Below are positions 1-30,624 of a stretch of 64,000 bases of DNA, piece after piece. The stretch is from contig CAWHTE010000002.1 in assembly GCA_963832165.1 (NCBI GenBank), positions 96,001-160,000 of the forward strand, in the 5' to 3' direction. A model generated the notes under the pieces. The model worked only from the letters and a program-made list of their open reading frames with translations. It made no database searches and was not told the origin of the DNA. The stretch is from an uncultured delta proteobacterium. GTDB taxonomy: Bacteria > Myxococcota_A > UBA9160 > SMWR01. The translations under genes and the position numbers were made by a program. The stretch's first letter is position 1. Every line of letters begins with the position of its first letter.

Positions 1-877
1 AACGCGATCGTGAACGCCTCGAGCGGCGCCTCGTGGATCGCGGAGGCGATGCCTAGCACCGAACACGAGTCGAGCCCGCCCGAGAGGTAGACGCCCACGG
101 GCACGTCCGCGCGCAGGCGCAGCCGGATCGACTCGACCAGCGCGTCGCGCAGCCGCTCGACGTGCTCGGCCACACTGCGCTCGGGCGCGGGCCGCTCCGC
201 GGTCGGGTACTGCAGGTCCCAGTACGGACCACCTGCGTGCGCTGTCGCGTCGCGAGCAGGTAGTGCCCGGGCGGCACTTGGTACACGCCGTCGAACATCG
301 TGCGATCGCCGTCCGCGATCATCATGAGGTCCTGGAACACCGATTCGTGATCCCAGCGCGCGGGCACGCCGGCCGCGAACAGCGCCTTGGCCTCGGACGC
401 GAGCGTGAGCACGTCGCCGGTCTGCGCGTAGAAGAGCGGCTTGATGCCGAACCGGTCGCGAGCGGCGAACAGGAGTCCCGCGCGCTCGTCCCAGAGCGCG
501 AACGCGAACTCGCCGCGCAGCTCGCGCAGGCAGTGCGTGCCGAGCTCCTCGTAGAGGTGGATCAGGATCTCGCTGTCGGAGCCCGTGCGCAGATGATGTC
601 CGCGCGCGGTGAGCTCGCGCTGGATGCGCTCGAAGTCGTAGAACTCGCCGTTCACGACCGCGTGGATCTGTCCGTCCTCGTTCGAAAGCGGCTGATCGCC
701 GGTCGCGAGATCGATGATCGAGAGCCGTGCGTGGCCCATCCCGACGCGCCCGTGCGGCGCGACCCAGACGCGGTGGCCGTCGGGTCCGCGGTGGTACAGC
801 TCGTGCGTCGCGCGCCAGAGCGCCTCTTCCTTCACAGTCCGACCGTTGCGCGAGAACTGGGTGACGATGCCGCACAT
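1..877 (-). CDS. asnB: Asparagine synthetase B-like glutamine amidotransferase (paralog 1), runs off the window start; apparent 1-nt frameshift near 225
   Basis: N-terminal MCG (Ntn Cys), HRGPD, RLSIID, NGEFY, RDRFGIKPLFY. After a frame change at ~225 the minus strand reads YWDLQYP...LRADVPVGVYLSGGLDSCSV (PP-loop). SD-like AAGGAG upstream. Confidence 0.88.
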
Positions 878-926
878 ACGGGGTCTCCTTTGCCCGTGAG
901 CGTGGCCGAATTCACACCGGCCCAGG

Positions 927-942
927 TGTGAAGTACTTCACA
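927..942. promoter_or_regulatory. CRP-family-type palindromic operator (site 1) between divergent asnB paralogs
   Basis: TGTGA-AGTACT-TCACA inside a perfect 20-bp palindrome GGTGTGAAGTACTTCACACC (925-944). A degenerate second site CGTGG-CCGAAT-TCACA lies at 901-916. Confidence 0.8.
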
Positions 943-1013
943 CCCGCCCCGCGGAATCGGGCAGGATGCTCCCGATCGGGCTGGGGCCCGCCCCTTCCCG
1001 GACGGAGGCGACC

Positions 1014-2948
1014 ATGTGTGGTTTCGTAGCCGGGCTGCTGCGCGACGCCCTCGAGCCGAAGCGGCTCGACCGCGCGCTCGAGACGCTCCATCACCGCGGC
1101 CCCGATTCCGTCGGTCGCTGGATCTCGCCCGACCGACGCTGGTTCCTCGGCCACACGCGCCTCTCGATCATCGGCCTGACGAACGGCGACCAGCCGATCG
1201 CGAACGAGGCTGGCGACGTGCAGATCGTCGTCAACGGCGAGTTCTACGGCTACCGCGCGATCCGCGAGCGTCTGCGCGCCGAAGGCAGCAAGTTCAAGAC
1301 CGAATCCGACAGCGAGATTGCGCTGCACCTCTACCTGCGCGAGGGCATGAACCTCGGGCGCCACCTGCGCGGCGAATTTGCAGCCGTGATCGCCGACCGG
1401 CGCAACGGCGCGATGCTCGCGATCCGCGACCGCTTCGGCATCAAGCCGCTGTTCTACACCGTGCACGAAGGGAACGTGTACTTCGCGTCCGAAGTGAAGG
1501 CGCTGCTCGCGCTCGGCGTTCCCGCGCGCTGGAACCGCGAGGCCGTGTTCCAGGAGTGCTTTCACTTCCGCCCGCACTCGCGCTCGATCTTCGACGGCAT
1601 CTACACCGTTCCGCCCGGTCACTACGCGATCGCGCAGCGCGGCGAGGTGAGCGTCTACCCGTACTGGGACCTTGAGTTTCCGACCGCGGCCGAGATCGCG
1701 GCCGACGACCGCACCGACGCCGAGGTGGTCGCGGGTTTCCGCGCCGTGCTCGACGATGCGGTGCGCGAGCGGTTGATCGCCGACGTCGAGGTCGCGAGCT
1801 ATCTCTCCGGCGGGATCGACTCGTGCGCGGTGCTCGGCCTCGCCCAGCGCCACATGGATCGCCCGATCCGCGCATTCACGCTCTGCTTCGAAGACGCGGC
1901 CTACGACGAGTCGGAGCTCGCGCGCGCACAGGCCGCGCTCACGGGCTCGAGCTTCCACCCGGTACCCGTGCCTCCGCGTGCGCTCGCGGAGTCCTACAAC
2001 GACGCTGTCTGGCACGCGGAGACGCCGTTCGTGAACGGTCACGGTGTGGCGAAGTTCCTGCTCTCGCGCGCAGTGCGCGACGCGGGGATCAAGGTGGTGT
2101 TCACGGGCGAAGGGTCGGACGAGATGCTCGCGGGCTATGCGCCGTTCCGGCGCGACGTCCTGCTCTACAACAGCGCCAGCCAGGACCCCGAGATCGTCCA
2201 GAAGCTGCTCGCCGAGATGCGCGCGTCGAGCTCGAACCGCGCCGTACCGATGCTCGTGCCGACCGAGGACGCGCCGATCCCACAGCTCGACACCGTCGCG
2301 CGCCGGCTCGGCTGGATTCCGTCGTGGATCAAGACGTTCGGAGCGAACGGCGCGCGCACGACGGAGTTCTTCAGCGCGGGGATGGCCGAGAGCGTGGCGG
2401 GGATCAATCCCTACGAGCTCGCGCTCTCGCGCCTGCCGGTCGAGGAGCGCCTCGCGGGGCGCGATCCGCTGAACCAGGCGCTCTATCTCTGGTCGCGGAT
2501 CCATCTCCCGAACTTCATCCTGACGTTCCTCTCCGATCGCATGGAGATGGCGCACTCGATCGAGGGGCGCGTTCCGTTCCTCGACCATCTCGTGGCCGAG
2601 TACGCGGCCGGCATCCCGATCCACATGAAGATCAACGGCATGCGCGAGAAACACGTGCTGCGCGAAGCGACGCGCGACGTGCTGATCGAGCCGGTCTACA
2701 ACCGCGAGAAGCACCCCTTCACGACGCCGCCCGCGAAGGTCGGCGAGAAGGACGCGATGCACGAGCTGATGGGTGACGTGTTCAGCTCGGGGCTGCTCGA
2801 CGAGCAGCCGATCTTCGACGCGGCCGCCGTGCGCAAGCTGTTCGACACGCTTCCCGAGAAGACCCCCGAAGAGCGGGTCGCGCTCGATGGCTTCTGGAAC
2901 CGCGTGCTCAGCTTCACGCTGATCCACCAGCGATTCGGCATGGGGTAG
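1014..2948 (+). CDS. asnB: Asparagine synthetase B-like glutamine amidotransferase (paralog 2)
   Basis: ATG at 1014 after GGAGG gives MCGF. Motifs HRGPD, NGEFY, RDRFGIKPLFY, YLSGGIDS, TGEGSDE, DRMEMAHSIEGRVPFLD. Confidence 0.93.
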   Translation: MCGFVAGLLRDALEPKRLDRALETLHHRGPDSVGRWISPDRRWFLGHTRLSIIGLTNGDQPIANEAGDVQIVVNGEFYGYRAIRERLRAEGSKFKTESDSEIALHLYLREGMNLGRHLRGEFAAVIADRRNGAMLAIRDRFGIKPLFYTVHEGNVYFASEVKALLALGVPARWNREAVFQECFHFRPHSRSIFDGIYTVPPGHYAIAQRGEVSVYPYWDLEFPTAAEIAADDRTDAEVVAGFRAVLDDAVRERLIADVEVASYLSGGIDSCAVLGLAQRHMDRPIRAFTLCFEDAAYDESELARAQAALTGSSFHPVPVPPRALAESYNDAVWHAETPFVNGHGVAKFLLSRAVRDAGIKVVFTGEGSDEMLAGYAPFRRDVLLYNSASQDPEIVQKLLAEMRASSSNRAVPMLVPTEDAPIPQLDTVARRLGWIPSWIKTFGANGARTTEFFSAGMAESVAGINPYELALSRLPVEERLAGRDPLNQALYLWSRIHLPNFILTFLSDRMEMAHSIEGRVPFLDHLVAEYAAGIPIHMKINGMREKHVLREATRDVLIEPVYNREKHPFTTPPAKVGEKDAMHELMGDVFSSGLLDEQPIFDAAAVRKLFDTLPEKTPEERVALDGFWNRVLSFTLIHQRFGMG

Positions 2949-2977
2949 GGCGGGAGGAGCCGAAGGCGGATCCCGCC
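2945..2977 (+). repeat. GTAG-type REP element, type 1
   Basis: GTAGGGCGGGAGGAGCCGAAGGCGGATCCCGCC: GTAG then stem GGCGGGA/TCCCGCC with an internal GCC-GAA-GGC mini-hairpin. Its TAG is the asnB stop codon. Confidence 0.85.
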
Positions 2978-2985: not shown

Positions 2986-3786
2986 CTAATGCAACGGGCG
3001 CCGCCCGCGCGCCGCGAAGCGGATCCACGACACCCACTGGAACGACGGATCCGCGAGCGCGCGCGCGAACGTCTCGAGATCCTTCTCGTTGAGCCAGTCG
3101 CCCTTCAGGAGCGGCTCGCGCACCCGCTCGACCGACTGCTGCAGAAAGGTCGAGATCGGGCCGCCGCCGTGGTGTACCAGCGTCACGCCCTCGTTGCCGA
3201 TCTCGACGAGTCCGAGGCGCTCGAACAGTCCGGGCAGCCGCGGGGCGACGCACAGATCCATGATCGCGTCCGCGCGCATCGCGTCGACGAACGCGCGCAC
3301 GGTCCAATCGAACACCGCGCTCGACTTGTGGTCGGGCGTGGCGGAGCGCAGCGGAGTGAAGTCGCAGGCCTCGACGAAGAGCTGGCCGCCCGGGCGCAGC
3401 GCCGCAGCCATGCGCTCGAGCGCGCGGCGCGGGTCGGACAGATGCTCGAGCAGCGCGCGGCAGTGGACGAGGTCGTAGTGATCGGGCTCGAGCGGGTCGC
3501 GCATCACGTCCTGCTGGCGCACCTCGACGTTCTTGGGCAGCTCGAGCGCCTCGAGAAAGCGCGTGTCGATGTCGATCGCGGTGACGGAGCCCTCGACGCC
3601 CACGCGCTCCGCGAGCCAGCGCACCACCGATCCGCCGCCGCCCGCCACTTCCAGACAATGCCAACCGGGTGCCACCCCGATCTTCTCGAGCCGCTCGAAC
3701 GTGATCGGATCGGAGCTGGCCTCGAGCAGTCCGAGGCGTGTGCGCTCCGATGCGAACTCAGCTCCAGCGGCGAAGTAGCGGGTCAT
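2986..3786 (-). CDS. Class I SAM-dependent methyltransferase
   Basis: LEVAGGGGSV motif I, VTAIDID, YDLVHCRALLEH, ALRPGG; GGAGG SD upstream. Confidence 0.9.
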   Translation of the reverse strand: MTRYFAAGAEFASERTRLGLLEASSDPITFERLEKIGVAPGWHCLEVAGGGGSVVRWLAERVGVEGSVTAIDIDTRFLEALELPKNVEVRQQDVMRDPLEPDHYDLVHCRALLEHLSDPRRALERMAAALRPGGQLFVEACDFTPLRSATPDHKSSAVFDWTVRAFVDAMRADAIMDLCVAPRLPGLFERLGLVEIGNEGVTLVHHGGGPISTFLQQSVERVREPLLKGDWLNEKDLETFARALADPSFQWVSWIRFAARGRRPLH

Positions 3787-3853
3787 CGTAACCTCCGTTG
3801 GCGGACGCGTGGCTTCTCGACAGCCAGCATCGCCCCGGGTTACCGGGCCCAGG

Positions 3854-3869
3854 TGTGAACTACTTCACA
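3854..3869. promoter_or_regulatory. CRP-family-type palindromic operator (site 2) upstream of the methyltransferase
   Basis: TGTGA-ACTACT-TCACA. The flank GGCCCAGGTGTGAA.TACTTCACACC is almost identical to site 1. Confidence 0.8.
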
Positions 3870-3918: not shown

Positions 3919-3951
3919 GTAGGGCGGGAGGAGCCGAAGGCGGATCCCGCC
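3919..3951 (+). repeat. GTAG-type REP element, type 1
   Basis: Identical 33-mer to 2945-2977. Confidence 0.85.
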
Positions 3952-3971: not shown

Positions 3972-4229
3972 CTAGCGCGAAGCTGAAGGTGTGCCGCGCA
4001 GCAGTCCGGCCACATTCAGATCCTCGTCGACATCCGGCCAGTGAATCCCGATACCGTCGCCCAGAATCTCGAAGCGGCGGCGCTCTTCTGGAGTGGCACG
4101 GAGCAGGCGAGGGAACCACGCGAGAGGGGTGGCGATTCGGCGCCCATCGGCAAGGACGACGATGAGTTCGTCCTCGGTGACGGTCACCTCCTTTGCGCGC
4201 GGATCAGTGCTAGGCAGAGAAGAACTCAT
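3972..4229 (-). CDS. DUF2442-family protein (putative TA partner)
   Basis: 85 aa with LADGRRIATPLAWFPRL...GIHWPDVDEDLNVAGLL, typical of DUF2442; overlaps the upstream DUF4160 gene. Confidence 0.85.
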   Translation of the reverse strand: MSSSLPSTDPRAKEVTVTEDELIVVLADGRRIATPLAWFPRLLRATPEERRRFEILGDGIGIHWPDVDEDLNVAGLLRGTPSASR

Positions 4230-4446
4230 GCCAAGCCTCCTCGAATCGCTGTCGGTTGTCCTCGACGAGCCGCCGAACTCGACTCAGCTCGTGCGCGGGG
4301 AATCCGACTGACGATGCTAGCGCTACGGGTTGCAGCCAGAACTTGGCAAGCGAGCGGTCTCGATGCACATGGATGTGCATCGGCTCCAACCCTTCGTTTC
4401 CAAAGAAGAAGAATCGATACGGTCCGATTCGAACCACCGTCGGCAC
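4210..4446 (-). CDS. DUF4160-family protein (putative TA partner)
   Basis: 78 aa with MPTV..IGPYRFFF..NE..EPMHIHV...AKFWL...EAWHEFF, typical of DUF4160. Confidence 0.85.
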   Translation of the reverse strand: MPTVVRIGPYRFFFFGNEGLEPMHIHVHRDRSLAKFWLQPVALASSVGFPAHELSRVRRLVEDNRQRFEEAWHEFFSA

Positions 4447-4472
4447 GCGGCGACCGTACCGATCGCCGCCCC

Positions 4473-4505
4473 GTAGGGCGGGAGGAGCCGAAGGCGGATC
4501 CCGCC
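4473..4505 (+). repeat. GTAG-type REP element, type 1
   Basis: Identical 33-mer to 2945-2977. Confidence 0.85.
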
Positions 4506-4542
4506 TTTCGAACTCGTCTGATGGTGTAATTCGCTCGGAATT

Positions 4543-5004: not shown

Positions 5005-5016
5005 CTCGCTCTCTCC

Positions 5017-5269: not shown

Positions 5270-5271
5270 CT

Positions 5272-5314: not shown

Positions 5315-5342
5315 GATCTGTGGCGTGGTTTTGCGCCTCGAA

Positions 5343-5422: not shown

Positions 5423-8400
5423 TCATTCGCGCTCGGCGCACAGCTCCGCAAAACGCGCGAGCGCCTCGTCGGCGGCGTCGACGGGGTAGAGCTCGTAGCG
5501 GCGGATGCGATCGCCTTCGAAGAGCTGAAAACCGATGAGGTAGTTCTCGAACGGCCCGCCGTCGGGGATGGTTCCGAATGCGCGGGAAAGAAACACCGCT
5601 CCGTGCTCGTTTCGCGTGAAGAACCGGAGCATCTCCACGCCGAGATCGGGCGCCATCTCGGCCCACGCGCGCACCGACTCCACGTACTCGTCGCGGTTCA
5701 CGACGCCGAGCGAGAGCGGGCGGTGATCGTGAATGACGGCATCGGGTAGGTAGGAGCTGCGCAGCGCCTCCCAGTCGTGCTCGTTGAAGGCGACGACACC
5801 GAGCGATCGCGCTCGAACCGGTCTTTCAGGCACGAAGCGCGACCACATCTCCGCAAACGCGGCGTGGCGGTCGTCGAGGTCGAACGTGATGATGGCGACC
5901 ACGTGGCCTTCGGAGTCGACCTCGACAACGTGCAGGTTTTCGATTTCGAACGCCCCGGCATCCCAGGTCCAGAGCATCTTCTCGAGCGTGAGCCGATCCC
6001 CCGCCGTCGCGAGGCGTGTGCGCGAGAGCGCAACGTCCGTTGCTGCCATCAACTTGCTGTTCTCGATGAACATCTCGCAATCGCCAGTAGTGAGAAACTG
6101 GCGGCGCCGATCTTCGAAGACCATCGGCGCGCACAACGCCCGTAGATCGTCCCAGGCGCGTGCCCGGTAGTACTCCCAAATGCGATCTACCGCACGCGTC
6201 GCCGCGTTGGGCGGAATCCGCAGCGGATCGGGGCGCAGCTCTTCGAACCGCGCGCGCGCGACGTCGAGGTCTTCGAGCTCGAAGTTCTCTTCCCGCACGA
6301 TGCGGCCGCCCCGGTAATGCCCGAGCGCGACGAAGATCGACTCGTACTCCCCGCCCTCGGCCAGCGTTCCGAAGCGGCGGCCGATCCCGAGGAACCCGTG
6401 TTCCTCGCGAGCGATCGTGTACAGCCCGCCGAAGATCGTGTCGGGCGATTGCTCGAATAGCGCGGCGAGCGATGCGATGTACTCGTCCTTCTCGATCCGC
6501 CCGAGGCCGGTCCGGCGGTGATCGTCGAACACATATTCGTCGGGCAGCGCAGCGCGGCACGCTGCGAGGTCGCGGTCGAGCCGAGCGCGGTACATCGCCA
6601 CGACTCCAGCAGGCAGCGATTCGAGGCGCGCTTCGCGTTCGAAGAGCTCGCGAGTCGCGGCGCGGCGGTCGTCGGGGTCGAAGACGACCAGCGCATCCAT
6701 GCGGCCCTCCGAATCGGCTTCGACGACCGAAAGCACTTCGGCTTCGACGCCCGGTACATCCGTGCCGTCGGTTCTGATCTGGAAGGTCTGGTGGATCAGT
6801 GCCAGACGATCTCCCGCCGTCGCGAGGACCGTGTTGAAGCGCCGGATCGCGGGTCCCGCGAAGCGCAGGCTCGCGACGAACATGTCGCGGTCGCCCTTCA
6901 GGAGCGCTGCGCGGCGGCGGTCGTCGAACTCGAGCGTCGGCGCGCACAGAGCCGCTACGGCGTCCCAGTCTCCGGCGAGGTGTGCTTCCTCCAGGCGAGG
7001 GCCGAGCCGGGTCGCCGCGTTGGGCGGAATCCGCAGCGGATCGGGCTGCAGCTCTGCGAACCGCGCGCGCGCATCGTCGAGCTGATCGAGGGCGTAGACG
7101 TCGCGGCGATGTTCCTGCCCTTCGGCGTCGACCTCGAACACGGCCACGCGCAGCTGCTCGAACGCGCCGCCCTCGTGCGTGCCGAACACGAGGCCGATCC
7201 TGAGCAAACCGCGCTCGCAGAGCCATACGTGTAGCGGACGGATACGCGTGTCGGCGGACAGCGCGTTCAGCGCCTTCATCGATTCGATGTAGGTCGCACG
7301 GTCGAGCGTGCCCCAGCCGAGCGGGCTGTGATCGTGGACGACGAAGTCCGGGGCGAGATACGCCCCCATGTCCGACTCCGGTGCTCCGCGAGCCTGCCCG
7401 AACATCTGCATCCAGCGCACGGGGGCCGGGAATGCGGCGGCCTCGCCCGCGAGGAAGCGTCGCCCCAGCTCGGCGTACGCGTCGTCGAGCTTGTCGGGGT
7501 CGAAGCGGACGAGCGCGATGCGGTTGCCGTGCTCGTCGACTTCCGCCACCGAGAGGGACTCGGTCTCGCTGGGCCCGATCGAGCCGTCGCTCCCTTCGAA
7601 GCGCATCCGGGTCAGCACCAGCCGGTCGCCGCGCGTGGCGAGCACCTCCTGGAAGACCCGAGATTCCTCCATCTCGAGCAGCGGATGAATGAACTGGTGG
7701 AACGTCTCGCGATCGAGCTCGAGCTGCATCAGCGCGCGCCGGTCGCTGTATCGGAGCTCGGGTGCATTGAGCGCGCAGATCGCCTGCCAGTCGCGAGCGG
7801 CCCACGCGCGACCGAATCGATCGACGGTCCGCGTGGCCGTGGTTTCGATCAGTCGTGCCGACGCGCGCGGCGCCGCGAGCTCCGCGAACCGCGCGCGCGC
7901 CGCGTCGAGCTGGTGGTCGAGGTCGTAGCAGTCGACGCTGGCGATGCGGCCGCGTTCGATTCCATAGATGAAGATGTGCGGGATCTCGAACGCTCCCTCG
8001 GCCTCGCTGCCGATCCACGTCGAGACCGCGAGCGCCACGCCCTCCGCGACGTCGATGTGGCTCACGCGAAGCGTCGCGTCGGGTCGCAGGTCCCACATCG
8101 AGCGGATCCGCGCGATGTAGTCATGCGCGGAGTCCATCGTCTCCCATCCCGAGAGCGGGCGGTGGTCGCGCGCGACGAGGTGCTCGGAGAAGACGGTCGT
8201 GAGCGCGTCCCAGGCGCGATCCCGGATCGCGCGCGCCAACCGCGACACCACGGCCTGGGTCTCGGGGTGTTCCGCCGCTTCGCCGGCCGCATAGCGCGCG
8301 TCGAGCTCGGCGTAGGCGGCGTCGAGAGCGGCGAGGTCGAAGCGAACCATCGCGGTCCGTTCGCCGCGCGCGTCTACCTCGACCACCGCGAGCGACTCGA

Positions 8401-18809: not shown

Positions 18810-18853
18810 ATTCTAATGGGTACGCCAGTTCCTGGGGTGTGAAGGGGTTCACA
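18810..18853 (-). promoter_or_regulatory. Promoter of paralog A: -10 TAGAAT plus CRP-family-type site 3
   Basis: Minus-strand TAGAAT at 18815-18810; TGTGA-AGGGGT-TCACA at 18838-18853. Confidence 0.8.
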
Positions 18854-18920: not shown

Positions 18921-18921
18921 G

Positions 18922-21900: not shown

Positions 21901-24900
21901 GAGCGGGCGCGACGGTGTCGGTGCCTCTGTGAGCTCCTCGAAGCGCGCTAGCGCCTCGTCGCGGCGGTCGACGTCGAGCCACTCGACGAAGGTCGCGAGA
22001 CCGTGGGCGCCGAACACCCGCAGCGACAGGTATTGGGCCTCGTAGGCGCCCCCACTCGCGCGGTCCGTTCCGCTCTCGTGCCATTCGATCAGGAGCCTCT
22101 CGGGCCGCACCGCGACGACATCAACGACGTCGAAGGTCAGGTCCGCGACGGTATCGAACCAGATGCCGATTCCGCGGTGTACCGCGTCTGCGCCGCGCGT
22201 CGTTCCGAGCGACACCACGCTGCGCCGGTCGCGGAAGATGACGTCGCGAGCGAAGATCGTGGCGAAGCGTTCGGCGTCCGCAGGTCCGTGCCACACCGCG
22301 AGCGTGCGCGCGGTAGCCGCTGCGCGCGTGCGCTCGGGGCCTTCGGGCAGCAGCTCGACATGGCGCTCGTACAGCCGCACGAGCGCGTCGCCGAGCCGGT
22401 CGGACGCGAAGATCTCGCAGTGCGTCAACCGACCCGCGGCGTCGACGTCGAAGATGGTGATGTTCTCGAGCTCGTAGGGTCCGACGTCGACGGTCTCCCC
22501 CGTGAATCCGCTCGCAGCGGCGCTCGTGCGACACAGCGCGAGCGAGTCGCCGAGCGTGGCGATCGGCTCGGTGCGGTGGACCGGATCGCGCGCGCGCAGG
22601 AGCGAGCGCCAGCTGTCCAGCATGCCCTGCCGGCCGAACTCCGTGCCGGTCGAGCGATCGACGAACTCGCAGGGATCGGCGAGGGTTTCGTCGAGCCCCT
22701 GGAGGTCGCGCGCCGCGATCGCGGTATCGAGCCGCGCCGCGTAGGCGCTCGCGGTGTTCGGCCGCACGCTGCGTCTCGGCGGCGTCGGCTCGGCAACCAG
22801 CGCGTCGAAACGCGCGAGCGCGTCGTCCGCGTGCTCGGCGTCGAACTGCTCGACGCGAGACACGAGGCCCGCGGCATCGAAGATCCAGATGAAGATGAAC
22901 CTGCGCTCGAACGTGCTCCCGCTCGCGCGCAGGGTGCCCCTGCTCGTGGATCGACACAGAAGGGCGTTGGACCGCACATCGATCACGTCGTCCATCCGGA
23001 AGACGACGCCGTCAGCGATCTCAGCGAGCTTTCGCGCCCAGTCGAGAAATGCCGCGGCACCCCGGATCGAGCCGATTCCGACCAGGCTCCGGTGGTCGAC
23101 CCACTCGACATCCGGCGCGAAGAGCGCTGCGCTTCGCGCGAGATCCATCGGCCCCGTGATGACCGTGATCGCGCGCGCAATCGCCAGGCATCTCGCGCGT
23201 CCGGGGCCGGGCGGCTCCAGCTCGGCGTAGCGCGCGTACAGGCGTGCGATCGCGTCGCCGAGGCGATCTTCCGAGAAACTCTCCGCTCGCGAGCGGCGGC
23301 CCTCGCGGTCGGCCTCGATCAGCACGAGGTGGTGGTTCTCGTAGGCGCCGACGTCGAAGCCCCCGCTCTCGAGAGCGCTCGCGGACGCGGACACGTGCAG
23401 GAGTGCGAGCGAGCCGCCGAGCGTGGCCACCGGCTCGTGTGCAGTCTTCGGATCGCGCGCCTTCATGTGGATCTGGAACGAGGTGAGCGCGCCCTGGCGA
23501 TCGTACGTGATGCCGGTCGGGTGATGGATATGGAGCGTATCGTCCGTGAACACCTGCTCGGCCGCAGACAGGTCGCGTGCTGCCATGGCAGCGTCGTAGC
23601 GCGCGCCGTTGGCAGTAGCGGCGTTGGGCCGCACGCGCCGCGCCCGGCGGCGCGGCGCGGCGGTGAGCTCGTCGAAGCGCGCGAGCGCCTCCTGCTCCTG
23701 GGTCAACTCGAAGAGCTCGAGGCGCGTCTGCAAGCCGTCGCTGCCGAAGACCATCAGGGAGATGGAGGGCGATTCGAAGCGACCGCCTCCGTCGCGCGCG
23801 GTCCCGGCAAACATCGTGCGCACGAGCAGCGCACTCGGACCCAGCCCGAGGATTTCATCGATGTGGTTCTCGATGTCGTCGGCGACCGCGAACCAGGAGC
23901 GGAACATCTCCAGCACGGCCTCGGGGCCGCGCGCGAAGAAGCTGCCGAGCTTGCGGCGGTCCACCATCTCGATCGCGGGCGAGTAGGCCGCCGTATAGCG
24001 CTCGAGGTCGTAGCCGCCCACCACGACCGCCCCAACCGAGCGCGCGGTCGAGGCAGCGCGCGCGCGCTCGGGGCCTTCGGGCAGGATCTCGGCATAGCGT
24101 TCGTATAGGCGCGTGACGGCGGCGCCGAGGCGGTCCGGCGCGAATCGCTCGGCGTAGCGCTGAAGGCCTTCCGCGTTGCTCTCGCTCAGCGTGAACATCT
24201 CGTTTGCGAAATCGCCGACATCGATCTGGGAGCTCTTGACTCCGCTCGCGGAGGTCGCGATCCGAGCCAGTGCGAGCGAGTCGCCCAGCGTTGCGAGCGG
24301 CTCGACCCGGTAGGACAGGTCGCGGCCCGCGAGCACGGCGTGCAGGCTGGCGAGGATCTCGCGCCGGCCGTAGGTGATGCCGACCTCGTGATCGAGCACC
24401 TCCGTGTCGTCGCTGTAGAGCGCAGCGATCTCCTCTTCGTCTCGTGCGGCGACTGCGCGCTCCACGCGGGCCAGGTGCGTGGTCGCCCCATTGGGTCGCA
24501 CGCGGCGCGCAGGGCGGGCCGACGGCGAGGTCGACGCGTCGAAGGCCGCGAGCGCCGCGTCGATCTGATCCGGCTCGAACATCTCGAAGCGCGCGAGCCG
24601 CCCGTCGGGGCCCGCGACCGAGAGCGAGAGGTAGGGGCGCTCATAGGCGCCGCCGCTCGCGCGCAGGGTGCCGAAATTGGTCTGGCGGACCAGGCACGCA
24701 TCCGGTCGCAGCGCGAGGATGTCGTCGAAGCGGTTCGCGGCGTCCGGGGCGAGCTCGAGCAGCGATCGAACCGCGTTCAGGAAGAGCTCCGGTCCGCGCC
24801 CTTGTCCGGCCCCGACGGTGCGGTGATCGAAGCTCTCGATGTCCGGCGCCAGGCTCGCGGCATACCGCTCGGTATCGACCCGCCCCACGTTGTTCGCCAC

Positions 24901-27900
24901 CGCGCGTGCGAACGCCGCCGCGCGCGTGCGCTCGGCGCCTTCGGGAAGCAGCTCCGCGTAGCGCTCGTACAGGCGCACGATCGCGTTGCCGAGCCGGTCC
25001 GCGCGGAAGCGCTCGGCGCGCAGCTGATGGCCGTCCGAGGAGACCATGTTCAGCGTGATCTCCTCGCTCGAGTAGCTCGCGACGTCGACCTCGCCACCGG
25101 CCACGCCACTCGCGGACACCGAAAGGCGCGTGAGCGCGAGCGAGTCGCCCAGCGACGCGAGTGGCTCGACGCGGTAGGACAGGTCGCGCGAGGCGAGCAA
25201 CGCACGGATCGCGGAGATCGTGTCGCGCTTGACGAAGGTGGTACCCGCGAGATGATCGACGACCTCCGTGTCGTCGGGGAAGAGCTCGGCGCACGCTGCG
25301 ATGTCTCGCGCGGCGACCGCGCTCTCGAGGCGGGCTTGCTGGACCGTAGCCGTGTTCGGCCGCACGCGGCGCGCGGGGCGCGCCGGCTCGGAGGTCAGCG
25401 CGTCGAAGCGCGCGAGCGCGTCCGACTCGCGGTCGGGATCGAACTGCTCGGCGCGCGAGACGAGGCCATTGGCATCGAAGATCCAGATCGACACGAACGG
25501 CCGCTCGAAGGAGCCACCGCTCGCGCGATCGGTGCCCGACGACGTGGCGCGGAACAGCAGCGCGTCGGCGCGCAGGTCGATCACGTCTTCCAGGCGGATC
25601 GCCGCCTGGTCGGCGGCGTCCGTGAGCGTGCGGATCCACTCGAGAGCGGCGGCGGACCCCTTGATGGATCCCATGCCGATCAAACTCCGGTGATCGACCC
25701 ACTCGATGTCCGGCGCGAGGATCGGCGCGCGGAAGCGGTCGAGATCGACCGGCCCGGCCAGCGCCGTGATCGCGCGCGCGATCGCGGCGGCGCGATCGAT
25801 CGCAGCGGCCGTCCTCTGTTGTTCCGCATGGCGCTCGTAGAGCCGAACGATCGCGTCGCCAAATCGATCGGGGGAGAACATCTCGATGCGGCGGTACCGC
25901 CCGGCGGCATCGGCCTCGAGCAGGAGAATTCGCGCGCCGTCGTAGGCGCCCACATCGAAGCCGCCCCCGGCCACCGACGGCCCAGACACGGAACAGCGAC
26001 AGAGCGCGAGAGAGTCGCCGAGCGTTGCGAGCGGCTCCTGCCTCACGAGTCCTTCGGCACGCAGCAGGATGCGCATCGTGGCGAGCGATTCCGCGCGGCC
26101 GTGGGTCACTCCCGTGGCGTGGTCGATGATTTCGACGTCGTCGGCCTGCAGCGCAGCGTAGGCGTCGACGTCGTGCGCGGCATAGGCCGCGTCGACGCGC
26201 GCGGCGACCGCGGTGGCCGCGTTCGGCCGCACGCGGCGCGAGGGGCGCGCCGGCGGCCCGGCCGTCAGCACGTCGAAGCGCGCGAGCGCGTCGGCCTCGC
26301 GGTCCGAGTCGAACACCTCGAAGCGCGAGACCCGGCCATCGGCCCCAAACACCGCGAGGGAAACGACATCGCGCTCGAACGCGCCGCCGCCGTCGCGCGC
26401 GATTCCCGAGAACGCCCCCCGGAATACGTACGCGTCGGGGCCCAGGTCGAGGATCTCGTCCGTGCGGATCTGCAGCTCGTCGCCGAGCCCGGTCCAGGAG
26501 CGGAAGTTCGCTTCCACAGCGACCGATCCACGCGCGGAGGAAGTGCCGAGGATGCGATGGTCCGTGAACACGATGTCCGGGGCGAGGCCGGCGGCATAGC
26601 GCTCGGGATCGTAGGGACCGAAGTGGGGGAAGCGCGCGATCACCGCCGCCCGCGCGCGCTCGAGGCCTTCGGGCAGCGATTCCGCATAGCGCTCGTAGAG
26701 ACGCGCGACGGCGTCGCCGAGCCGGTCGGCAGCAAAGCTCTCGAAGCGCGATGCTCGCTGCCCTTCCGCGCCGGCTTCGACCACGACGATCGCGGGCATC
26801 TCGTACGGGCCCACGCTCGCGTGCTGCCACCGGTTGCCGCTCGCGGCGATCGATTGGCGACACAGCGCGAGCGACTCGCCGAGCGTGGCGAGCGGCTCGA
26901 GCCGGTACGAGAAGTCGTCGCTGCGCCAGAGGCGGCGAGTGCTTTCGAGGGTGGCCATGCCGCTGTCCCAGGAGAGGCCGGTCGGATGGTGGACCACCTC
27001 GAAACCCTCGATCGCCGCCAGCATGGCGTCTTCGTCGCGAGCTCGGACCGCGGCTTCGATGCGCGCGGCGGCGGCGGTGGCGGCGTTCTCGCGGACGCGG
27101 CGGCGCGCGGGGGGTGCCGGGGTCGGTCCGCGCAAGGCGGGATCCGCCTTCGGCTCCTCCCGCCCTACGTGGCCGTGAACACCGGCGTCCACCGCAACGT
27201 CATGAGTAGGGCGGGAGACCGGAGCGATCCCGCCATCCCGCGCGCCCTCGCGCGCGCGCTCGACGAGCAGCGTCGCGCCCTTCGTCTCCCAGAGCGAGGT
27301 CGCGCGTGCCTCCTCCGCCGCGGCTTCGCTGCGCCGGCCCGCCGCGCGCAGCGCCGCCGCGAGCGCGGTGCGCGCTTCGGCGTGCCAAAGCAGCGCGTCG
27401 GTTGCCGCCGCGGTCTCGACGGCCGCGCGCGCGAGCTCGACCGCCCTCTCCGGCTCGCCGCGGCGCGCGAGCGCCTCGGCGCGCACATCGCGCCAGGCGA
27501 TCGCGGAGTGCAGATCGTCGCCCGCGAGCGCCTCGCTCTCGTGAGAGATCGCCTCGGCTTCGGCGGCGCGATCCTGCGCGAGCAACGCGCGGCCAAGCTG
27601 AGCGGCGCATTGCGCCGCGTCGCTGCCGAGCCCGAGCTCGCGCATGCCGTCGTACGCGGCGCGCAGACAGCGTTCGGCCGCGACGGGGTCGCCTTCGATC
27701 AGCTCGATCTCGCCCGCGAACTGATCCGCCTGGAGCAGGCGGTGGGTGATCCCGAGCTCCTCGACCATGCGTCGCGACGAGGCGATCATGCGGCGCGCGG
27801 CCTCGCTGCGACCGCGCAGCGCCTCGAGCACGCCCTGACACCGCAGTGCGACGGCTTCCACGGCCGGTGAGCCCTGCGTGATGCGCAGAACGCGCACGAC

Positions 27901-30465
27901 GTCGAGGCAGCGACCGCTCGCACGTGTCACAGGCGAGGGACCCCAGAGCGCCGCGAGCGGTGCACCCGAGAGCACCGCATTCGCGCGGCGGCGATCGCCC
28001 GCGCGGCGCGCCGCCGCGAGCGCGCGGTCGAGCGCGGCTTCACACGCGCCGACCTTTCCGAGCCGCGCGAGCGCGATCGCGTGCACGAAGTGCGCCTTTG
28101 CCTCGCCGGCAGAATCGCCCGCGGCCGTGAGCTGCTCGGCTGCGGCGGACACCGCGTCGGCGCTCGTGCGCAGCGTCTTCGGATCGGTGAGCGCGGCGCG
28201 CTCACCAGCGAAGCACGTGTGCCACGCGCGCAGCCGATCCGACTCCGCGGTGAAGCGGCCCAGCTCCTCGATCGCACGCTCCGCCGTGGCGACCTCGCCC
28301 GCGGCGAGCAGCGCCTCGCACCAGTCGAGCGCGAGCTCGGCACGCGCGGAATCGTCCGGCTCGAGGCGTTCGAGCGCGCGGCCGAGCAGGCTCGCCGCCA
28401 CGGGCACGTCGTCGCGCGCGAGCGCGCGGCGCCCCGCGGACGCGAGGTATTTCGACGCGCGCTCGCCGAGCGCGCGGCCCTGCGCATCGATCGGCCCGAG
28501 CTCGGAGAGGTGCTGGTGCGCCTGCTCGAGATGCCAGCCGATCGTCTCGTCGTGCGGCGGCTCGTCGCCGACGCGGCCGACGACCCATTCGGCGAAGCGA
28601 GCGTGCAGCTCCGCGCGCGTGTTCTTGAGCAGGCGGCGGTAGGCGGCGTCGCGGATCAGCACATGGTGGAAGCGCAGCGCGGGTTCGCCGAGGAACCATC
28701 CCGTGTCCGATTCGATCAGCTCGGTGCGGCGCAGGGCTTCGAGCTGGCGGTCGAGATCGGCGATCTCGCGCGGGAGCAGCTCCTTCACCGCCGCGCGCGA
28801 GAACTGGCGCCCGACGACCGACGCGCGCTCGAGCACGGTGCGCTCCTCGGGCCGCAGCTTCTCGATGCGCGCCGCGAGCAACGCCTGGATCGTCGGCGGC
28901 ATGTCCAGCGCGGCGAGCTCCACGCCGACCGTCCAGTGGTCTTTCTCGCGCACGAGTGCGCCGTCGTGCACGAGCATGCGCACGAGCTCACCCACGAAGA
29001 GCGGGTTGCCCTCGCTCGCCGCGAGCACGCGGCCCGCGACGGCCGCGGGCAGTTCATCTGCGCCGATCGCGTTCGCGGCGAGCTTCATCGCGGCGAGCGC
29101 GTCGAGCCCGGAGAGCGTCACGACCTCGGAGACCAGGCCGCCCGGAGTCGCGAGCGAGGAGCGCGTTTCGCGCAGCTCGGGCCGCGCCGCGACGAGCACG
29201 AGCAGCGGCGCGTCCGCCGTCCACTGCACGAGGTGCTCGGTTAGATCGAAGAGCAGCGGCTCGGCCCACTGCAGGTCGTCGATCGCGAGCACGATCGGTC
29301 GCGTCTCCGCGAGCGCGCCGAGGAACCGGCGCACGACGAAGAAGGTCTCCTCGGGCGGGGCGGGCGTGCCCGCGATCAGCGCGGCGACGCCGCTCGCGAT
29401 CCGGCGGTGCTCGGAGTCCTCTCCGGGCATCGCCGCCGCGATCGCGCTGCGCAGCGCATCGCCCGCGATCGCGTCATCGAGCTGCAGCAGCTCGCGCAGC
29501 GCTGCGGCGAGGGGTGCGAACGTGCCGCCGCCGGCCTGATCGCAGCGCGCGGTCAGCACGGTGGCCTCGTCCTGGAGTCGCCTCGCCACCTCGGCCAGCA
29601 CGCGCGACTTGCCGAGCCCGGGCGAGCCCAGGATCACCGCGAGCCGCGCGCGATGCTCCGAGATCGCATCGTCGTACACCGCGCGCAGTCGCCGCAGCTC
29701 GCTCTCGCGGCCGACGAACGGCGTGGCCGACGCGCCCGCGGGCCGGTCGAGCGACACGACGCGGTAGGCGGCGACCGCCTCCCTGCGGCCCTTCAGCTCG
29801 AGTGCGCCGATCGGTGCGAGCGTGACGAGCTCGGACACGAGCCGGCGGGTCGACTCGCCGATCAGGACGTCGCCGTCCTGCGCCGCGTGCTGGAGGTGTG
29901 CCGCGACGTTGAGCGGGTCGCCGATCCCGGCCGCGTAGTCGTCGGAGACGACCACCTCACCCGTGTTCACGGCCACGCGCAGGCCGACGCGATCGGCGAG
30001 TTGATTCTCCGCGCGGAACTCGCGGAACGCCTCCTGCACCGCGACCCCCGCGCGCACGGCGCGGATAGCGTCGTCCTCGGCCACGTTCGGGATGCCGAAC
30101 GCGCACATCACTCCGTCGCCGAGCAATTGCACGACGGTGCCGCCGTGCGCCTCGATCGGCGCGCGCACGGCGCGGTGGTAGCGGTCCATCATGCGACTGA
30201 CGGCCTCGGCGTCGAGCCGCTCCTGCAACGCGGTCGAGCCGATCAGGTCCGCGAACACGATCGTGACGACTTTGCGCGCGGGGGGCTGCCCGGCACCGGC
30301 ATCCACTGGACGCGCGTCGAGCGTGGCGCCGCACGCCTCGCAGAATCGCGCATCCAGCGGGGCCTCAGCGCCGCATGCCGGGCAGCGTGGCGCGAGTGCG
30401 TTTCCGCAGCCCGCGCAGAATCGAGCAGCCGGGCGGTTCGCCCGGCCGCAGCTCGCGCAATCCAT
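18922..30465 (-). CDS. Giant double-zinc-ribbon / class III nucleotide cyclase / STAND ATPase / TPR-like / SnoaL(NTF2)-like repeat protein, paralog B (3847 aa)
   Basis: Same N-terminal ~1090 aa architecture as paralog A (FADLIGST, GSPGLGKSR, IDDLQWA, GNPLF), then 9.5 repeat units; GGAGGG SD upstream. Confidence 0.9.
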   Translation of the reverse strand: MDCASCGRANRPAARFCAGCGNALAPRCPACGAEAPLDARFCEACGATLDARPVDAGAGQPPARKVVTIVFADLIGSTALQERLDAEAVSRMMDRYHRAVRAPIEAHGGTVVQLLGDGVMCAFGIPNVAEDDAIRAVRAGVAVQEAFREFRAENQLADRVGLRVAVNTGEVVVSDDYAAGIGDPLNVAAHLQHAAQDGDVLIGESTRRLVSELVTLAPIGALELKGRREAVAAYRVVSLDRPAGASATPFVGRESELRRLRAVYDDAISEHRARLAVILGSPGLGKSRVLAEVARRLQDEATVLTARCDQAGGGTFAPLAAALRELLQLDDAIAGDALRSAIAAAMPGEDSEHRRIASGVAALIAGTPAPPEETFFVVRRFLGALAETRPIVLAIDDLQWAEPLLFDLTEHLVQWTADAPLLVLVAARPELRETRSSLATPGGLVSEVVTLSGLDALAAMKLAANAIGADELPAAVAGRVLAASEGNPLFVGELVRMLVHDGALVREKDHWTVGVELAALDMPPTIQALLAARIEKLRPEERTVLERASVVGRQFSRAAVKELLPREIADLDRQLEALRRTELIESDTGWFLGEPALRFHHVLIRDAAYRRLLKNTRAELHARFAEWVVGRVGDEPPHDETIGWHLEQAHQHLSELGPIDAQGRALGERASKYLASAGRRALARDDVPVAASLLGRALERLEPDDSARAELALDWCEALLAAGEVATAERAIEELGRFTAESDRLRAWHTCFAGERAALTDPKTLRTSADAVSAAAEQLTAAGDSAGEAKAHFVHAIALARLGKVGACEAALDRALAAARRAGDRRRANAVLSGAPLAALWGPSPVTRASGRCLDVVRVLRITQGSPAVEAVALRCQGVLEALRGRSEAARRMIASSRRMVEELGITHRLLQADQFAGEIELIEGDPVAAERCLRAAYDGMRELGLGSDAAQCAAQLGRALLAQDRAAEAEAISHESEALAGDDLHSAIAWRDVRAEALARRGEPERAVELARAAVETAAATDALLWHAEARTALAAALRAAGRRSEAAAEEARATSLWETKGATLLVERAREGARDGGIAPVSRPTHDVAVDAGVHGHVGREEPKADPALRGPTPAPPARRRVRENAATAAAARIEAAVRARDEDAMLAAIEGFEVVHHPTGLSWDSGMATLESTRRLWRSDDFSYRLEPLATLGESLALCRQSIAASGNRWQHASVGPYEMPAIVVVEAGAEGQRASRFESFAADRLGDAVARLYERYAESLPEGLERARAAVIARFPHFGPYDPERYAAGLAPDIVFTDHRILGTSSARGSVAVEANFRSWTGLGDELQIRTDEILDLGPDAYVFRGAFSGIARDGGGAFERDVVSLAVFGADGRVSRFEVFDSDREADALARFDVLTAGPPARPSRRVRPNAATAVAARVDAAYAAHDVDAYAALQADDVEIIDHATGVTHGRAESLATMRILLRAEGLVRQEPLATLGDSLALCRCSVSGPSVAGGGFDVGAYDGARILLLEADAAGRYRRIEMFSPDRFGDAIVRLYERHAEQQRTAAAIDRAAAIARAITALAGPVDLDRFRAPILAPDIEWVDHRSLIGMGSIKGSAAALEWIRTLTDAADQAAIRLEDVIDLRADALLFRATSSGTDRASGGSFERPFVSIWIFDANGLVSRAEQFDPDRESDALARFDALTSEPARPARRVRPNTATVQQARLESAVAARDIAACAELFPDDTEVVDHLAGTTFVKRDTISAIRALLASRDLSYRVEPLASLGDSLALTRLSVSASGVAGGEVDVASYSSEEITLNMVSSDGHQLRAERFRADRLGNAIVRLYERYAELLPEGAERTRAAAFARAVANNVGRVDTERYAASLAPDIESFDHRTVGAGQGRGPELFLNAVRSLLELAPDAANRFDDILALRPDACLVRQTNFGTLRASGGAYERPYLSLSVAGPDGRLARFEMFEPDQIDAALAAFDASTSPSARPARRVRPNGATTHLARVERAVAARDEEEIAALYSDDTEVLDHEVGITYGRREILASLHAVLAGRDLSYRVEPLATLGDSLALARIATSASGVKSSQIDVGDFANEMFTLSESNAEGLQRYAERFAPDRLGAAVTRLYERYAEILPEGPERARAASTARSVGAVVVGGYDLERYTAAYSPAIEMVDRRKLGSFFARGPEAVLEMFRSWFAVADDIENHIDEILGLGPSALLVRTMFAGTARDGGGRFESPSISLMVFGSDGLQTRLELFELTQEQEALARFDELTAAPRRRARRVRPNAATANGARYDAAMAARDLSAAEQVFTDDTLHIHHPTGITYDRQGALTSFQIHMKARDPKTAHEPVATLGGSLALLHVSASASALESGGFDVGAYENHHLVLIEADREGRRSRAESFSEDRLGDAIARLYARYAELEPPGPGRARCLAIARAITVITGPMDLARSAALFAPDVEWVDHRSLVGIGSIRGAAAFLDWARKLAEIADGVVFRMDDVIDVRSNALLCRSTSRGTLRASGSTFERRFIFIWIFDAAGLVSRVEQFDAEHADDALARFDALVAEPTPPRRSVRPNTASAYAARLDTAIAARDLQGLDETLADPCEFVDRSTGTEFGRQGMLDSWRSLLRARDPVHRTEPIATLGDSLALCRTSAAASGFTGETVDVGPYELENITIFDVDAAGRLTHCEIFASDRLGDALVRLYERHVELLPEGPERTRAAATARTLAVWHGPADAERFATIFARDVIFRDRRSVVSLGTTRGADAVHRGIGIWFDTVADLTFDVVDVVAVRPERLLIEWHESGTDRASGGAYEAQYLSLRVFGAHGLATFVEWLDVDRRDEALARFEELTEAPTPSRPLPANAATAHTARVDEAIALRNTDALVELVAERAVILDHKTGTTFDREGWIASFRSLMKAREPQSLHEPLAILGDSLGLFRRTISATGFAGATLDVGSYLIDELDVLEADEQGRIAYAEVFAVDRLSDAIAKLYERYASEQPEGAERRRATAIARAIPVMLAPLDPDAIANLLALDVQYRDHRLLGWGSARGLVTVRRGVRDVAESITFTATPTDEILALRPDALLVHRTLEGEQRGVPFRSHPVALYVFDANGRLAQWENYDADERDAALARLDELVAPVAPPRLVENAATRSLDQFVQAWAARDWEAVRAVYAPEMRMSDRRSIVQLEFDLEEQLEFQRPLFEMKSSRVVAEIIATRGDRLALARMCTEVADGSIGPSEISSLAVWQVNPAGKAVAGARFDLDARDEAYAELDARYGAGEATEHPATWTALASLRGVLEAGEWGRIMALFSPDLFAEDHRLFGWGSANSPAEYVAAVRSLSDVAPDVTLRVDHVVLGDRAALFVASWIGSQAAGAFEIPVVTVFGFSRNGQVNRAHHYSLEQIAAARARFAEVEAPAVPARAVESAATRSIERFALAWSARDWKAVTALYAPGFRYIDQRSLMQLDIGLEHWFEFARPLFDMATSRISSEILATRGERLALSRMLVEVAGGSIGSASIGPSEIDSLIVCEVDAHGQRVANVRFDPNALDAAYAELDRRYAVGEAAEHPEMWAAISSMQSAISERNWGALPSRFSPDYIREDHRDEGSGTTHGSKLIVDSVRTLIKLRPDVSTRADHVELADRAALVVTHWVADELEDPFEVHSTNVFALGPDGTIGHDDIYDPEQLSAARARFAELATPRSPTAELDARYATGEAAAFPHIAGTMHAFLDAFALRDWDALAARMAPDLVVEDHRLLGWETVRSTADYVRTLHSLVDLAPDTQLRLDHAEMSQRGLIWIGAWVGTRDGGAFETPWITVSEHDARGIVLRFDQYDLEQLPAARARFEELRAKRE
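27136..27234. repeat. Inverted REP doublet inside the coding sequence of paralog B
   Basis: Exact type 1 REP on minus (27136-27168), 37-nt spacer, variant GTAGGGCGGGAGACCGGAGCGATCCCGCC on plus (27206-27234); the ORF stays open. Confidence 0.85.
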
Positions 30466-30491
30466 CCGGGAGGCCCTCCGGTGGCGGAGCC

Positions 30492-30534
30492 ATTCTAATA
30501 GGTCTGGTCACCCCGGGGTGTGAACGGGTTCACA
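30492..30534 (-). promoter_or_regulatory. Promoter of paralog B: -10 TAGAAT plus CRP-family-type site 4
   Basis: Minus-strand TAGAAT at 30497-30492; TGTGA-ACGGGT-TCACA at 30519-30534. Confidence 0.8.
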
Positions 30535-30624
30535 GGGCTGAAACAATGTTCGAATGGGTTTTACGACCGTTGTTGGGGCCCAAAACCCGCGGGGGGTGGC
30601 ACGTCGCTTGCTGCGTTGATCTGC

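Follow-up and report, generated by a model that had tools for sequence, protein, structure and literature searches.

The locus analysed here raises the question of why two genes encoding giant cyclase-ATPase proteins, two asnB-like amidotransferase genes and a methyltransferase gene should share one palindromic operator, and of which regulator might read it. The five genes lie at one end of a stretch of 64,000 nucleotides (the 'window'; C2:96,001-160,000) in the 5.54-Mb genome of an uncultured bacterium, which is assembled in 11 contigs, has a G+C content of 70% and is 89% complete. A sequence-only reading of the window had taken these genes for a self-contained system of cyclic-nucleotide sensing and response, in which the giant proteins themselves make the nucleotide that induces their own expression. 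Our analysis suggests a less closed arrangement: to judge from the DNA, it is rather likely that a lineage-specific regulon of a CRP-type class II activator has been extended onto the cluster of giant STAND proteins, the two amidotransferases and the methyltransferase. What was computed directly are the sites and their distance to -10-like elements, the association of the motif with a CRP ortholog, and the domain architecture of the giants. Among the public sequencing runs listed for this DNA, three soil DNA runs contain small shares of it (0.05-0.07), and no RNA run is included.

A palindromic operator common to five genes

The pattern TGTGA-N6-TCACA has four exact matches in the window, which serve the five genes (one site being common to the divergently oriented asnB pair; Table 1), and no further site is present there; 100 dinucleotide-preserving shuffles yielded none. 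The starting point of the sequence-only reading, one operator for five genes and nowhere else in the window, thus stands. Read in the context of the window sites, the operator core is longer, (G)GTGTGAA-N4-TTCACA, and is flanked by G/C rather than T/A. An additional half-site, GAATTCACAC, is found at 909-918, 9 nt away from site 1 and towards the left asnB gene.

The genome scan for which the sequence-only reading had called extends the list of putative targets. Genome-wide, TGTGAA-N4-TTCACA has 7 perfect, 2 one-mismatch and 33 two-mismatch sites, and all 7 perfect sites are intergenic, as judged with the crude caller based on third-position G+C (GC3) that provided all gene calls outside the window. 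Three of the perfect sites lie beyond the window (two on contig C7, one on C11), namely 211 bp upstream of a cytochrome P450 gene, 360 bp upstream of the gene for an LssY_C protein and, on C7, ~78 bp upstream of an open reading frame (ORF) for an AcrB-type RND permease. The latter ORF spans profile positions 1-385 of 1021 only and looks frameshifted; the permease appears split into ORFs of 625 and 474 aa in different frames (L002:4234-7397).

Two other identities of the palindrome were considered and rejected. A LacI-type operator does not fit, the central four bases being variable (GTAC, CTAC, GGGG, CGGG, GCCC, GCGC) without a fixed central CG, and, the seven identical copies in genome G008 apart (see below), the motif is not a piece of a dispersed repeat because the flanks differ past one G/C base.

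Promoter geometry

A -10-like hexamer nAnnnT is located at an offset of 22-24 from the motif edge in six of the eight regulon promoters (nine were tested if yihY is counted). The six hexamers are TAGAAT and GATGCT, twice each, CACGCT and, for the RND gene, CATGAT; the P450, LssY_C and yihY promoters have no -10-like hexamer at the expected offset. Since the hexamer starts 29.5 nt from the motif centre, the centre would come to lie at -41.5, which is the textbook geometry of class II CRP/FNR promoters. Hence, the palindrome would be centred ~41.5 bp upstream of the inferred transcription start, and a -10 element at fixed distance in promoters with no recognisable -35 element is typical of activator-dependent class II promoters.

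The same spacing recurs in relatives. We searched 41 genomes of the order for the motif, the window genome included, and obtained DNA for 68 of the 71 sites found in relatives; a gene start was called within 450 bp for 43 of these (the caller placed no downstream gene behind the other 25), which yields 53 oriented site-gene pairs. In this set nAnnnT is found at offset 22 in 19 pairs and at offset 23 in 8, compared with 0-3 pairs at each of the other offsets between 1 and 49.

The promoters of giants 1 and 2 are duplicates, with the same -10 hexamer, the same motif and, in both, an 11-nt element, CATTCGAACAT (18869-18879 and 30546-30556; 15 and 11 nt upstream of the operator), the spacers nearby having diverged. 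That the spacer between motif and hexamer is among the diverged parts argues that the motif is under selection, and the 11-nt element may be bound by a second protein or resemble an UP element. The TAGAAT of giant 1 overlaps the first ATG (18809-18811), so that the TTG at 18784, which follows AAGGAGG, is the likelier start codon. The methyltransferase and left-asnB promoters likewise have flanking sequence in common.

A candidate regulator of the CRP family

A search for CRP/FNR-family genes, also called for by the sequence-only reading, identified two clear ones in this genome, which has nine genes encoding a domain that binds cyclic nucleoside monophosphates (cNMPs). One is on contig C3 (recognition helix TSRETVTR), and the other (helix TTRESINK) is at C2:167,940-168,650, ~8 kb to the right of the window, and thus provides a candidate for the regulator that had been placed outside the window. 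The C2 protein combines PF00027 (cNMP-binding) with PF13545, has the recognition-helix stretch GTTRESINKQ and an intact cNMP phosphate-binding cassette (FGE...PRSA), and finds its closest solved relatives in M. tuberculosis CRP and in Corynebacterium proteins of the GlxR type.

The connection between this protein and the motif comes from relatives. In genomes G017 and G022 the motif itself is located 90 and 109 bp upstream of CRP-family genes, which points to orthologs under autoregulation; the G022 protein is 54% identical to the C2 protein, with an identical stretch, GDLVGTTRESINKQ, in the recognition-helix region, and only 31% identical to the C3 paralog. When orthologs are defined by at least 40% identity (our own choice), 32 of the 41 genomes contain one. 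The motif is found in 26 of the 41 genomes (1-9 copies each; a reversed-pattern control in 1 of 41), that is, in 25 of the 32 with an ortholog versus 1 of the 9 without. Related genomes are not independent samples, and we regard the co-occurrence as supportive and not as a statistic. In four genomes (G021, G031, G034, G007) the distance between the ortholog and a motif site is no more than about 0.3-14 kb. Taken together with the class II spacing, these findings support the earlier assignment of the palindrome as a CRP-type operator.

Two regions in genomes of other families, G031:C1:4,096,572-4,114,329 and G034:C35:4,932-12,276, bring together motif sites, CRP orthologs and a cyclase-AAA_16 gene of the ordinary form within 7-18 kb, which hints at a looser, recurring link between this CRP and STAND cyclases. 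Moreover, a second type of palindrome with TGTGAT/ATCACA-type half-sites and A/T-rich flanks occurs at C3:574515, C7:214548, C7:56625 and C7:349133 (the last with one imperfect half) and may be the operator of the C3 paralog.

The giant proteins and their NTF2-like arrays

From the N- to the C-terminus, Pfam assigns to the giants a double zinc ribbon, a class III cyclase (Guanylate_cyc), a STAND ATPase (AAA_16) and, behind a helical arm, an array of SnoaL_2/DUF4440 domains. The AAA_16 matches have E-values of 6e-22 to 2e-22, the Walker A (GSPGLGKS) and Walker B (LAIDD) motifs can be read, giant 3 adds a TPR_12 match, and SnoaL_2 scores 250-254 bits, above the cut-off. The giants thereby exhibit the layout of STAND proteins, that is, a P-loop ATPase with both Walker motifs, a helical arm and 16-24 C-terminal repeats.

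The genome encodes four such proteins. Giant 3 is located directly downstream of the left asnB gene, 117 bp apart and with no motif of its own, and is probably co-transcribed with it; giant 4 fills the 15-kb contig C10 with over 4100 aa and lacks its N-terminus, where the contig ends. From the repeats we built an iterative profile, which identified 24, 19, 16 and 22 NTF2-like domains in giants 1-4 (81 in sum), each of ~143 residues, which fill the C-terminal parts almost without gaps. The domains alternate in an A-B pattern, with ~45% identity two domains apart versus ~21% between neighbours. The N-terminal 1100 residues of the paralogs are 74-85% identical, and their repeats show no position-by-position correspondence, the best domain matches being 27-63% identical.

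An AlphaFold model of one A-B pair, for which 29 pairs served as the alignment, reached a pLDDT of 93.6 and a pTM of 0.90; the best fold matches of the pair are Lsd19 and MonBI-MonBII, and those of single domains are ketosteroid isomerase and SnoaL-like proteins. The C-terminal arrays are presumed to be sensors for small hydrophobic ligands. Pfam domains, repeat profile and pair model thus agree with the cyclase-STAND-NTF2-array architecture that the sequence-only reading had described.

At least 391 proteins of 2,115-6,733 residues match the N-terminal 1100 residues with E <= 1e-10. The 120 listed homologs all have the same architecture, with 67-100% identity in the N-terminal region; among their sources are entries named 'nuclear transport factor 2 family protein' from metagenome-assembled genomes (MAGs) of Myxococcota, Deltaproteobacteria and Candidatus Eisenbacteria. 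We compared 50 giant loci, whose MAGs bear the labels Deltaproteobacteria, Myxococcota or Candidatus Binatia or, in a few cases, other labels. A search of the full-text literature retrieved no paper describing the architecture of the giants. In G030:C10 (L013), an orthologous giant of 4763 aa is directly preceded by a small ORF that we read, by eye, as PemK/MazF-like, and the same contig contains an ORF of 3808 aa with a 30% match to the N-terminal module.

Cyclase competence and the source of the regulator's ligand

Do the giants themselves make the ligand of the regulator? Both metal-binding Asp residues are present in giants 1-3 (FADLIGST and LGDG), giant 4 being cut before the first, and the transition-state Asn is kept in all four. 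The Arg position is occupied by Arg in giants 3 and 4 and in orthologs, and by His in giants 1 and 2 (NVAAHL); of the 120 listed homologs, 110 have Arg there, 7 (both window proteins included) have His, and 3 are unresolved. In an alignment with P. aeruginosa CyaB (3r5g), the Lys position of giants 1 and 2 is taken by Gln and the Thr/Asp position by Ala; the two proteins combine neither Asn with Arg nor the residues of a substrate pair (Lys with Asp/Thr, or Glu with Cys/Ser). Regular expressions applied to the 120 listed homologs assigned Gln to the Lys position 84 times, Lys 34 times and His twice, and recognised Walker A in 116. Gln at this position is common to the whole zinc-ribbon/cyclase/AAA_16 family in the order, and all giants lack 8 cyclase-domain residues that are present in its ordinary ~1100-aa members.

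The question bears on a closed regulatory loop, in which a ligand bound by the NTF2-like arrays would activate the giants' cyclase, the resulting cNMP would activate CRP, and CRP would induce more giants together with asnB and methyltransferase enzymes that modify the ligand. Such a loop can draw on all the evidence for CRP control of the giants, on the metal-binding Asp pair in giants 1-3, the Asn in all four and the Arg in giants 3 and 4 and most listed homologs, and on the 67-85% identity that the N-terminal 1100 residues keep in the other 119 listed homologs, a sign of a module that is constrained and functional. The family-wide Gln fits as well, for in a mycobacterial cyclase-ATPase protein a Gln-Asn pair has been reported to be compatible with both adenylyl and guanylyl cyclase activity (work cited in bioRxiv 10.1101/2024.03.06.583649). 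In addition, the remaining perfect sites front a P450 gene and an RND pump gene, as would suit a small-molecule response.

However, giants 1 and 2, the ones with sites of their own, are those in which His replaces the Arg and Ala occupies the second specificity position. A further five class III cyclase genes of the genome, among them one in which Lys/Thr, Asn and Arg are canonical, could be a source of nucleotide for the regulator; together with the nine cNMP-binding-domain genes they leave the source of the ligand not pinned to the giants. Furthermore, the composition of the cluster is not conserved and cyclases are absent from the motif-fronted genes of relatives (see below). That the giants make the regulator's ligand is, on balance, doubtful, and the full loop appears unlikely. 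The same holds for the related idea that the giants constitute a new class of receptor, in which 8-12 diversified NTF2-pair pockets per chain would sample many hydrophobic small molecules, ligand binding would drive the STAND part to oligomerise and so turn on a non-canonical, Gln-type cyclase, and a CRP feedback loop in this genome would induce enzymes that modify the ligand and a pump that exports it.

Conservation in relatives

For the 50 giant loci we examined the 8-kb upstream flank; 35 of them have an intact N-terminus and upstream DNA. A perfect motif is absent from all 35, anywhere in the locus, and one (L137) has a variant, TGTGAG-N4-CTCACA, 104 bp upstream. An asnB homolog is located in the upstream flank of 1 of the 50 loci and the methyltransferase in none. 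None of the four relatives' orthologs of the right asnB gene (75-83% identity) has a site within 300 bp, the best candidates showing at least 5 mismatches. The methyltransferase has no close ortholog in relatives, where the best full-length matches are 32-41% identical and none of the six same-genus genomes gave a match; nor was a giant found in these six genomes (best match 34%).

Motif sites in same-genus genomes front P450 genes (G001, G004), an MFS transporter gene and an ECF sigma factor gene. Among the 52 motif-fronted proteins of relatives are P450 (2), DUF928 (4) and CRP (2) proteins, a GST, a luciferase-like monooxygenase, a TetR protein, an MFS protein and others; 14 have no Pfam match, and none is a cyclase, an AsnB or a methyltransferase. 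In G008, seven sites on seven contigs (L100, L102-L107) have the identical spacer, as in TGTGAAGTACTTCACA, and the caller placed no gene downstream; they could be a repeated element or precede missed small genes.

The self-contained system proposed by the sequence-only reading is therefore not borne out: neither the motif nor the company of asnB and methyltransferase genes accompanies the giants in relatives, and it is the absence of the motif upstream of homologs that this reading had itself counted as decisive against it. The proposed connection between cluster and regulator is peculiar to this genome and represents local rewiring and no conserved module.

Proposed mechanism and remaining alternatives

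In the reading that we favour, the activator encoded at C2:167,940-168,650, a protein with a cyclic-nucleotide-binding domain, would bind TGTGAA-N4-TTCACA and would turn on the genes for giants 1 and 2 and the methyltransferase, the right asnB gene and the left asnB gene together with that of giant 3; elsewhere in the genome, its motif also fronts the cytochrome P450 gene, the RND efflux pump gene and the gene of the LssY_C protein. The NTF2-like arrays, with their 16-24 domains in A-B pairs, may sense small hydrophobic ligands, and ATP-dependent oligomerisation of the STAND part would then place the class III cyclase domains of the N-termini side by side. From DNA binding and activation to ligand sensing and cyclase output, these steps are inferred.

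Several observations weigh against this picture. (i) Orthologous giants and asnB genes lack the motif, as detailed above. (ii) The four window sites do not count as independent of one another, given the duplicated giant promoters and the flanks common to the promoters of the methyltransferase and left asnB genes. (iii) The P450 and LssY_C genes start 211 and 360 bp from their sites, and neither promoter has a -10-like hexamer where it would be expected. (iv) The C2 CRP gene follows a hydrolase gene after a gap of 3 nt and has no motif site of its own in this genome, and with the assembly being 89% complete a further regulator gene may be missing from it. (v) The cyclases of giants 1 and 2 have His for Arg, no Lys-Asp/Thr pair and the 8-residue deletion. 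(vi) The core TGTGAA-N4-TTCACA is the same as that of the Rex operator, TTGTGAA-N4-TTCACAA.

Next to the closed loop, two further explanations deserve consideration. The giants might be NLR-like immune or surveillance receptors of the STAND type, with a cyclase effector and a fast-diversifying array, the CRP sites being an incidental local layer. Four paralogs in one genome, arrays that have diverged (best domain matches of 27-63%) next to N-terminal modules that are 74-85% identical, and the two toxin-antitoxin-like modules and REP-like dispersed repeats within the cluster (see below) would all suit such a role, as would the weak matches to Pycsar cyclase profiles returned by PADLOC (PycC, E 7e-11). 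The PADLOC matches, however, reflect the generic cyclase and methyltransferase folds only and leave the C-terminal part of 2647 residues unmatched; no cNMP-activated effector gene is located beside the giants among the window genes, and the NTF2 fold binds small hydrophobic molecules rather than phage proteins. We therefore consider an immune function quite improbable.

Least probable is that the palindrome is the operator of a cNMP-independent repressor blocking RNA polymerase at -35, such as the redox sensor Rex, which the sequence-only reading had named as the alternative that would overturn it: apart from sharing the core, a site at -41.5 would indeed cover the -35 region too, but PF06971 has no match in this genome (89% complete) whereas 7 of 14 control genomes gave one in the same search, the core is flanked by G/C and not T/A, no respiratory, fermentation or NAD(H)-linked gene is among the targets here (those in relatives being mixed), the motif co-occurs with a CRP-family gene and fronts one in two genomes, and the promoters combine a -10-like element at fixed distance with no recognisable -35.

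Features of the locus and neighbouring small elements

Table 1. Positions of genes, promoter elements and small elements (window coordinates; giant 3 by its own locus)
Feature	Position	Strand	Remarks
Left asnB paralog	1..877	-	GATase_7 part 53-877; Asn_synthase part in other frame past window start
-10-like hexamer, left asnB	899..904	-	CACGCT; 23 nt past motif edge
Operator site 1	927..942		TGTGAAGTACTTCACA; common to divergent asnB pair
-10-like hexamer, right asnB	965..970	+	GATGCT; 23 nt past motif edge
Right asnB paralog	1014..2948	+	644 aa; starts MCG; TIGR01536 412 bits (cut-off 267)
Methyltransferase	2986..3786	-	class I, S-adenosylmethionine (SAM)-dependent; 266 aa; Methyltransf_11/25
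-10-like hexamer, methyltransferase	3826..3831	-	GATGCT; offset 23
Operator site 2	3854..3869		TGTGAACTACTTCACA; upstream of methyltransferase gene
DUF2442	3972-4229	-	first toxin-antitoxin-like pair
DUF4160	4210-4446	-	first toxin-antitoxin-like pair
HicB	4567-5004	-	second toxin-antitoxin-like pair
70-aa ORF	5057-5269	-	second toxin-antitoxin-like pair
AT-rich palindrome	~5272-5300		GATATCATAATATGATATC; just upstream
Giant 1	5423..18784 (ORF from 18811)	-	4453 aa from TTG; 24 NTF2-like domains
-10-like hexamer, giant 1	18810..18815	-	TAGAAT; offset 23
Operator site 3	18838..18853		TGTGAAGGGGTTCACA; upstream of giant 1
Giant 2	18922..30465	-	3847 aa; architecture of giant 1, 19 NTF2-like domains
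-10-like hexamer, giant 2	30492..30497	-	TAGAAT; offset 22
Operator site 4	30519..30534		TGTGAACGGGTTCACA; upstream of giant 2
Giant 3	L004:690-10844, just left of window	-	3384 aa; architecture of giants 1 and 2
REP-like repeat	2956-2977		GGAGCCGAAGGCGGATCCCGCC
REP-like repeat	3930-3951		GGAGCCGAAGGCGGATCCCGCC
REP-like repeat	4484-4505		GGAGCCGAAGGCGGATCCCGCC
REP-like repeat	5342-5363	-	GGAGCCGAAGGCGGATCCCGCC
REP-like repeat	27136-27157	-	GGAGCCGAAGGCGGATCCCGCC; inside giant 2 reading frame

The two asnB paralogs are 42-49% identical. The right one has an intact frame, scores above the TIGR01536 cut-off and retains the N-terminal Met-Cys nucleophile. The left one is not intact as assembled: its frames switch near 228-230, and two tblastn pieces abut at 227/230, which indicates a one-base frameshift. 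The frame breaks in this gene and in the RND permease gene may be assembly indels and the genes no pseudogenes.

Positions 3972-5310, which lie between the promoter of the methyltransferase gene and the end of giant 1, have a lower G+C content (0.63) and contain the two toxin-antitoxin-like pairs, in the second of which we read the 70-aa ORF, devoid of a Pfam match, as HicA-like. A dispersed repeat resembling repetitive extragenic palindromic (REP) elements has 43 exact copies in the genome, one of them on the contig of giant 4; the copy within giant 2 is located in the linker ahead of the first NTF2 domain and is read as GREEPKADPA. Scanned against Rfam at gathering thresholds, the whole window gave no match.

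Comparison with known systems

What emerges is a compact regulon defined by computation, whose operator is clear, whose geometry is fixed and for which a candidate regulator can be named; its host lineage is an uncultured one from soil. With the class II promoters of CRP/FNR proteins (E. coli CRP, Rv3676, GlxR), for which the -41.5 rule and the consensus sequences of CRP and GlxR are well known, the window promoters share (i) a 16-bp TGTGA/TCACA palindrome with a predicted centre ~41.5 bp from the start, (ii) the lack of a separate -35 element and (iii) a candidate protein with a cNMP-binding domain and an R-E-x-x-x-K recognition helix. They differ in the tighter consensus TGTGAA-N4-TTCACA, with 0-9 perfect sites per genome and 7 here, and in their host, an uncultured lineage labelled Binatia or Myxococcota in which binding is predicted from sequence. 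The Rex operator (ROP) of Gram-positive bacteria shares the core and is set apart by the missing Rex gene, the G/C flanks, targets unrelated to redox metabolism and the activator geometry.

The family of giants, with at least 391 members of 2,115-6,733 residues in which a cyclase-STAND head is joined to up to 24 NTF2-like pockets, is unstudied. If the arrays are ligand sensors, the giants would be among the most multivalent small-molecule receptors known from bacteria. In their arrays, the A-B pair resembles the tandem-NTF2 enzymes Lsd19 and MonBI-MonBII in predicted fold (Foldseek E 5e-13 to 9e-12), and single domains resemble ketosteroid isomerase (target-normalised TM-scores 0.74-0.76). Sequence identity is 12-16%, however, and the giants have 8-12 pairs per chain; the likeness seen is one of predicted fold, and whole-pair TM-scores of only 0.35-0.40 suggest that the two domains are probably arranged differently.

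In their heads, the giants match positions 284-1045 of the profile TIGR03903, a TOMM kinase/cyclase fusion, with cyclase, AAA_16 and arm (187.6 bits), yet they stay far under its cut-off of 705.75 bits, lack the kinase domain and have another C-terminus. Closer are the mycobacterial proteins Rv0386, Rv1358 and Rv2488c and the ~1100-aa zinc-ribbon/cyclase/AAA_16/TPR family, whose ordinary form is abundant in the order with up to 12 matches per genome. With these the giants share the cyclase, the STAND P-loop ATPase and the helical or TPR arm and, with the ~1100-aa family, Gln at the substrate-defining Lys position; the study of a Gln-Asn cyclase-ATPase with both activities reportedly concerned Rv0386. 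The 8-residue cyclase deletion, and in giants 1 and 2 the His for Arg, distinguish the giants from the ~1100-aa family, and 16-24 NTF2-like domains stand where the mycobacterial proteins have a short C-terminus with a LuxR helix-turn-helix. The giants are thus cyclase-STAND proteins of a kind already known, joined to an NTF2 array that is without precedent.

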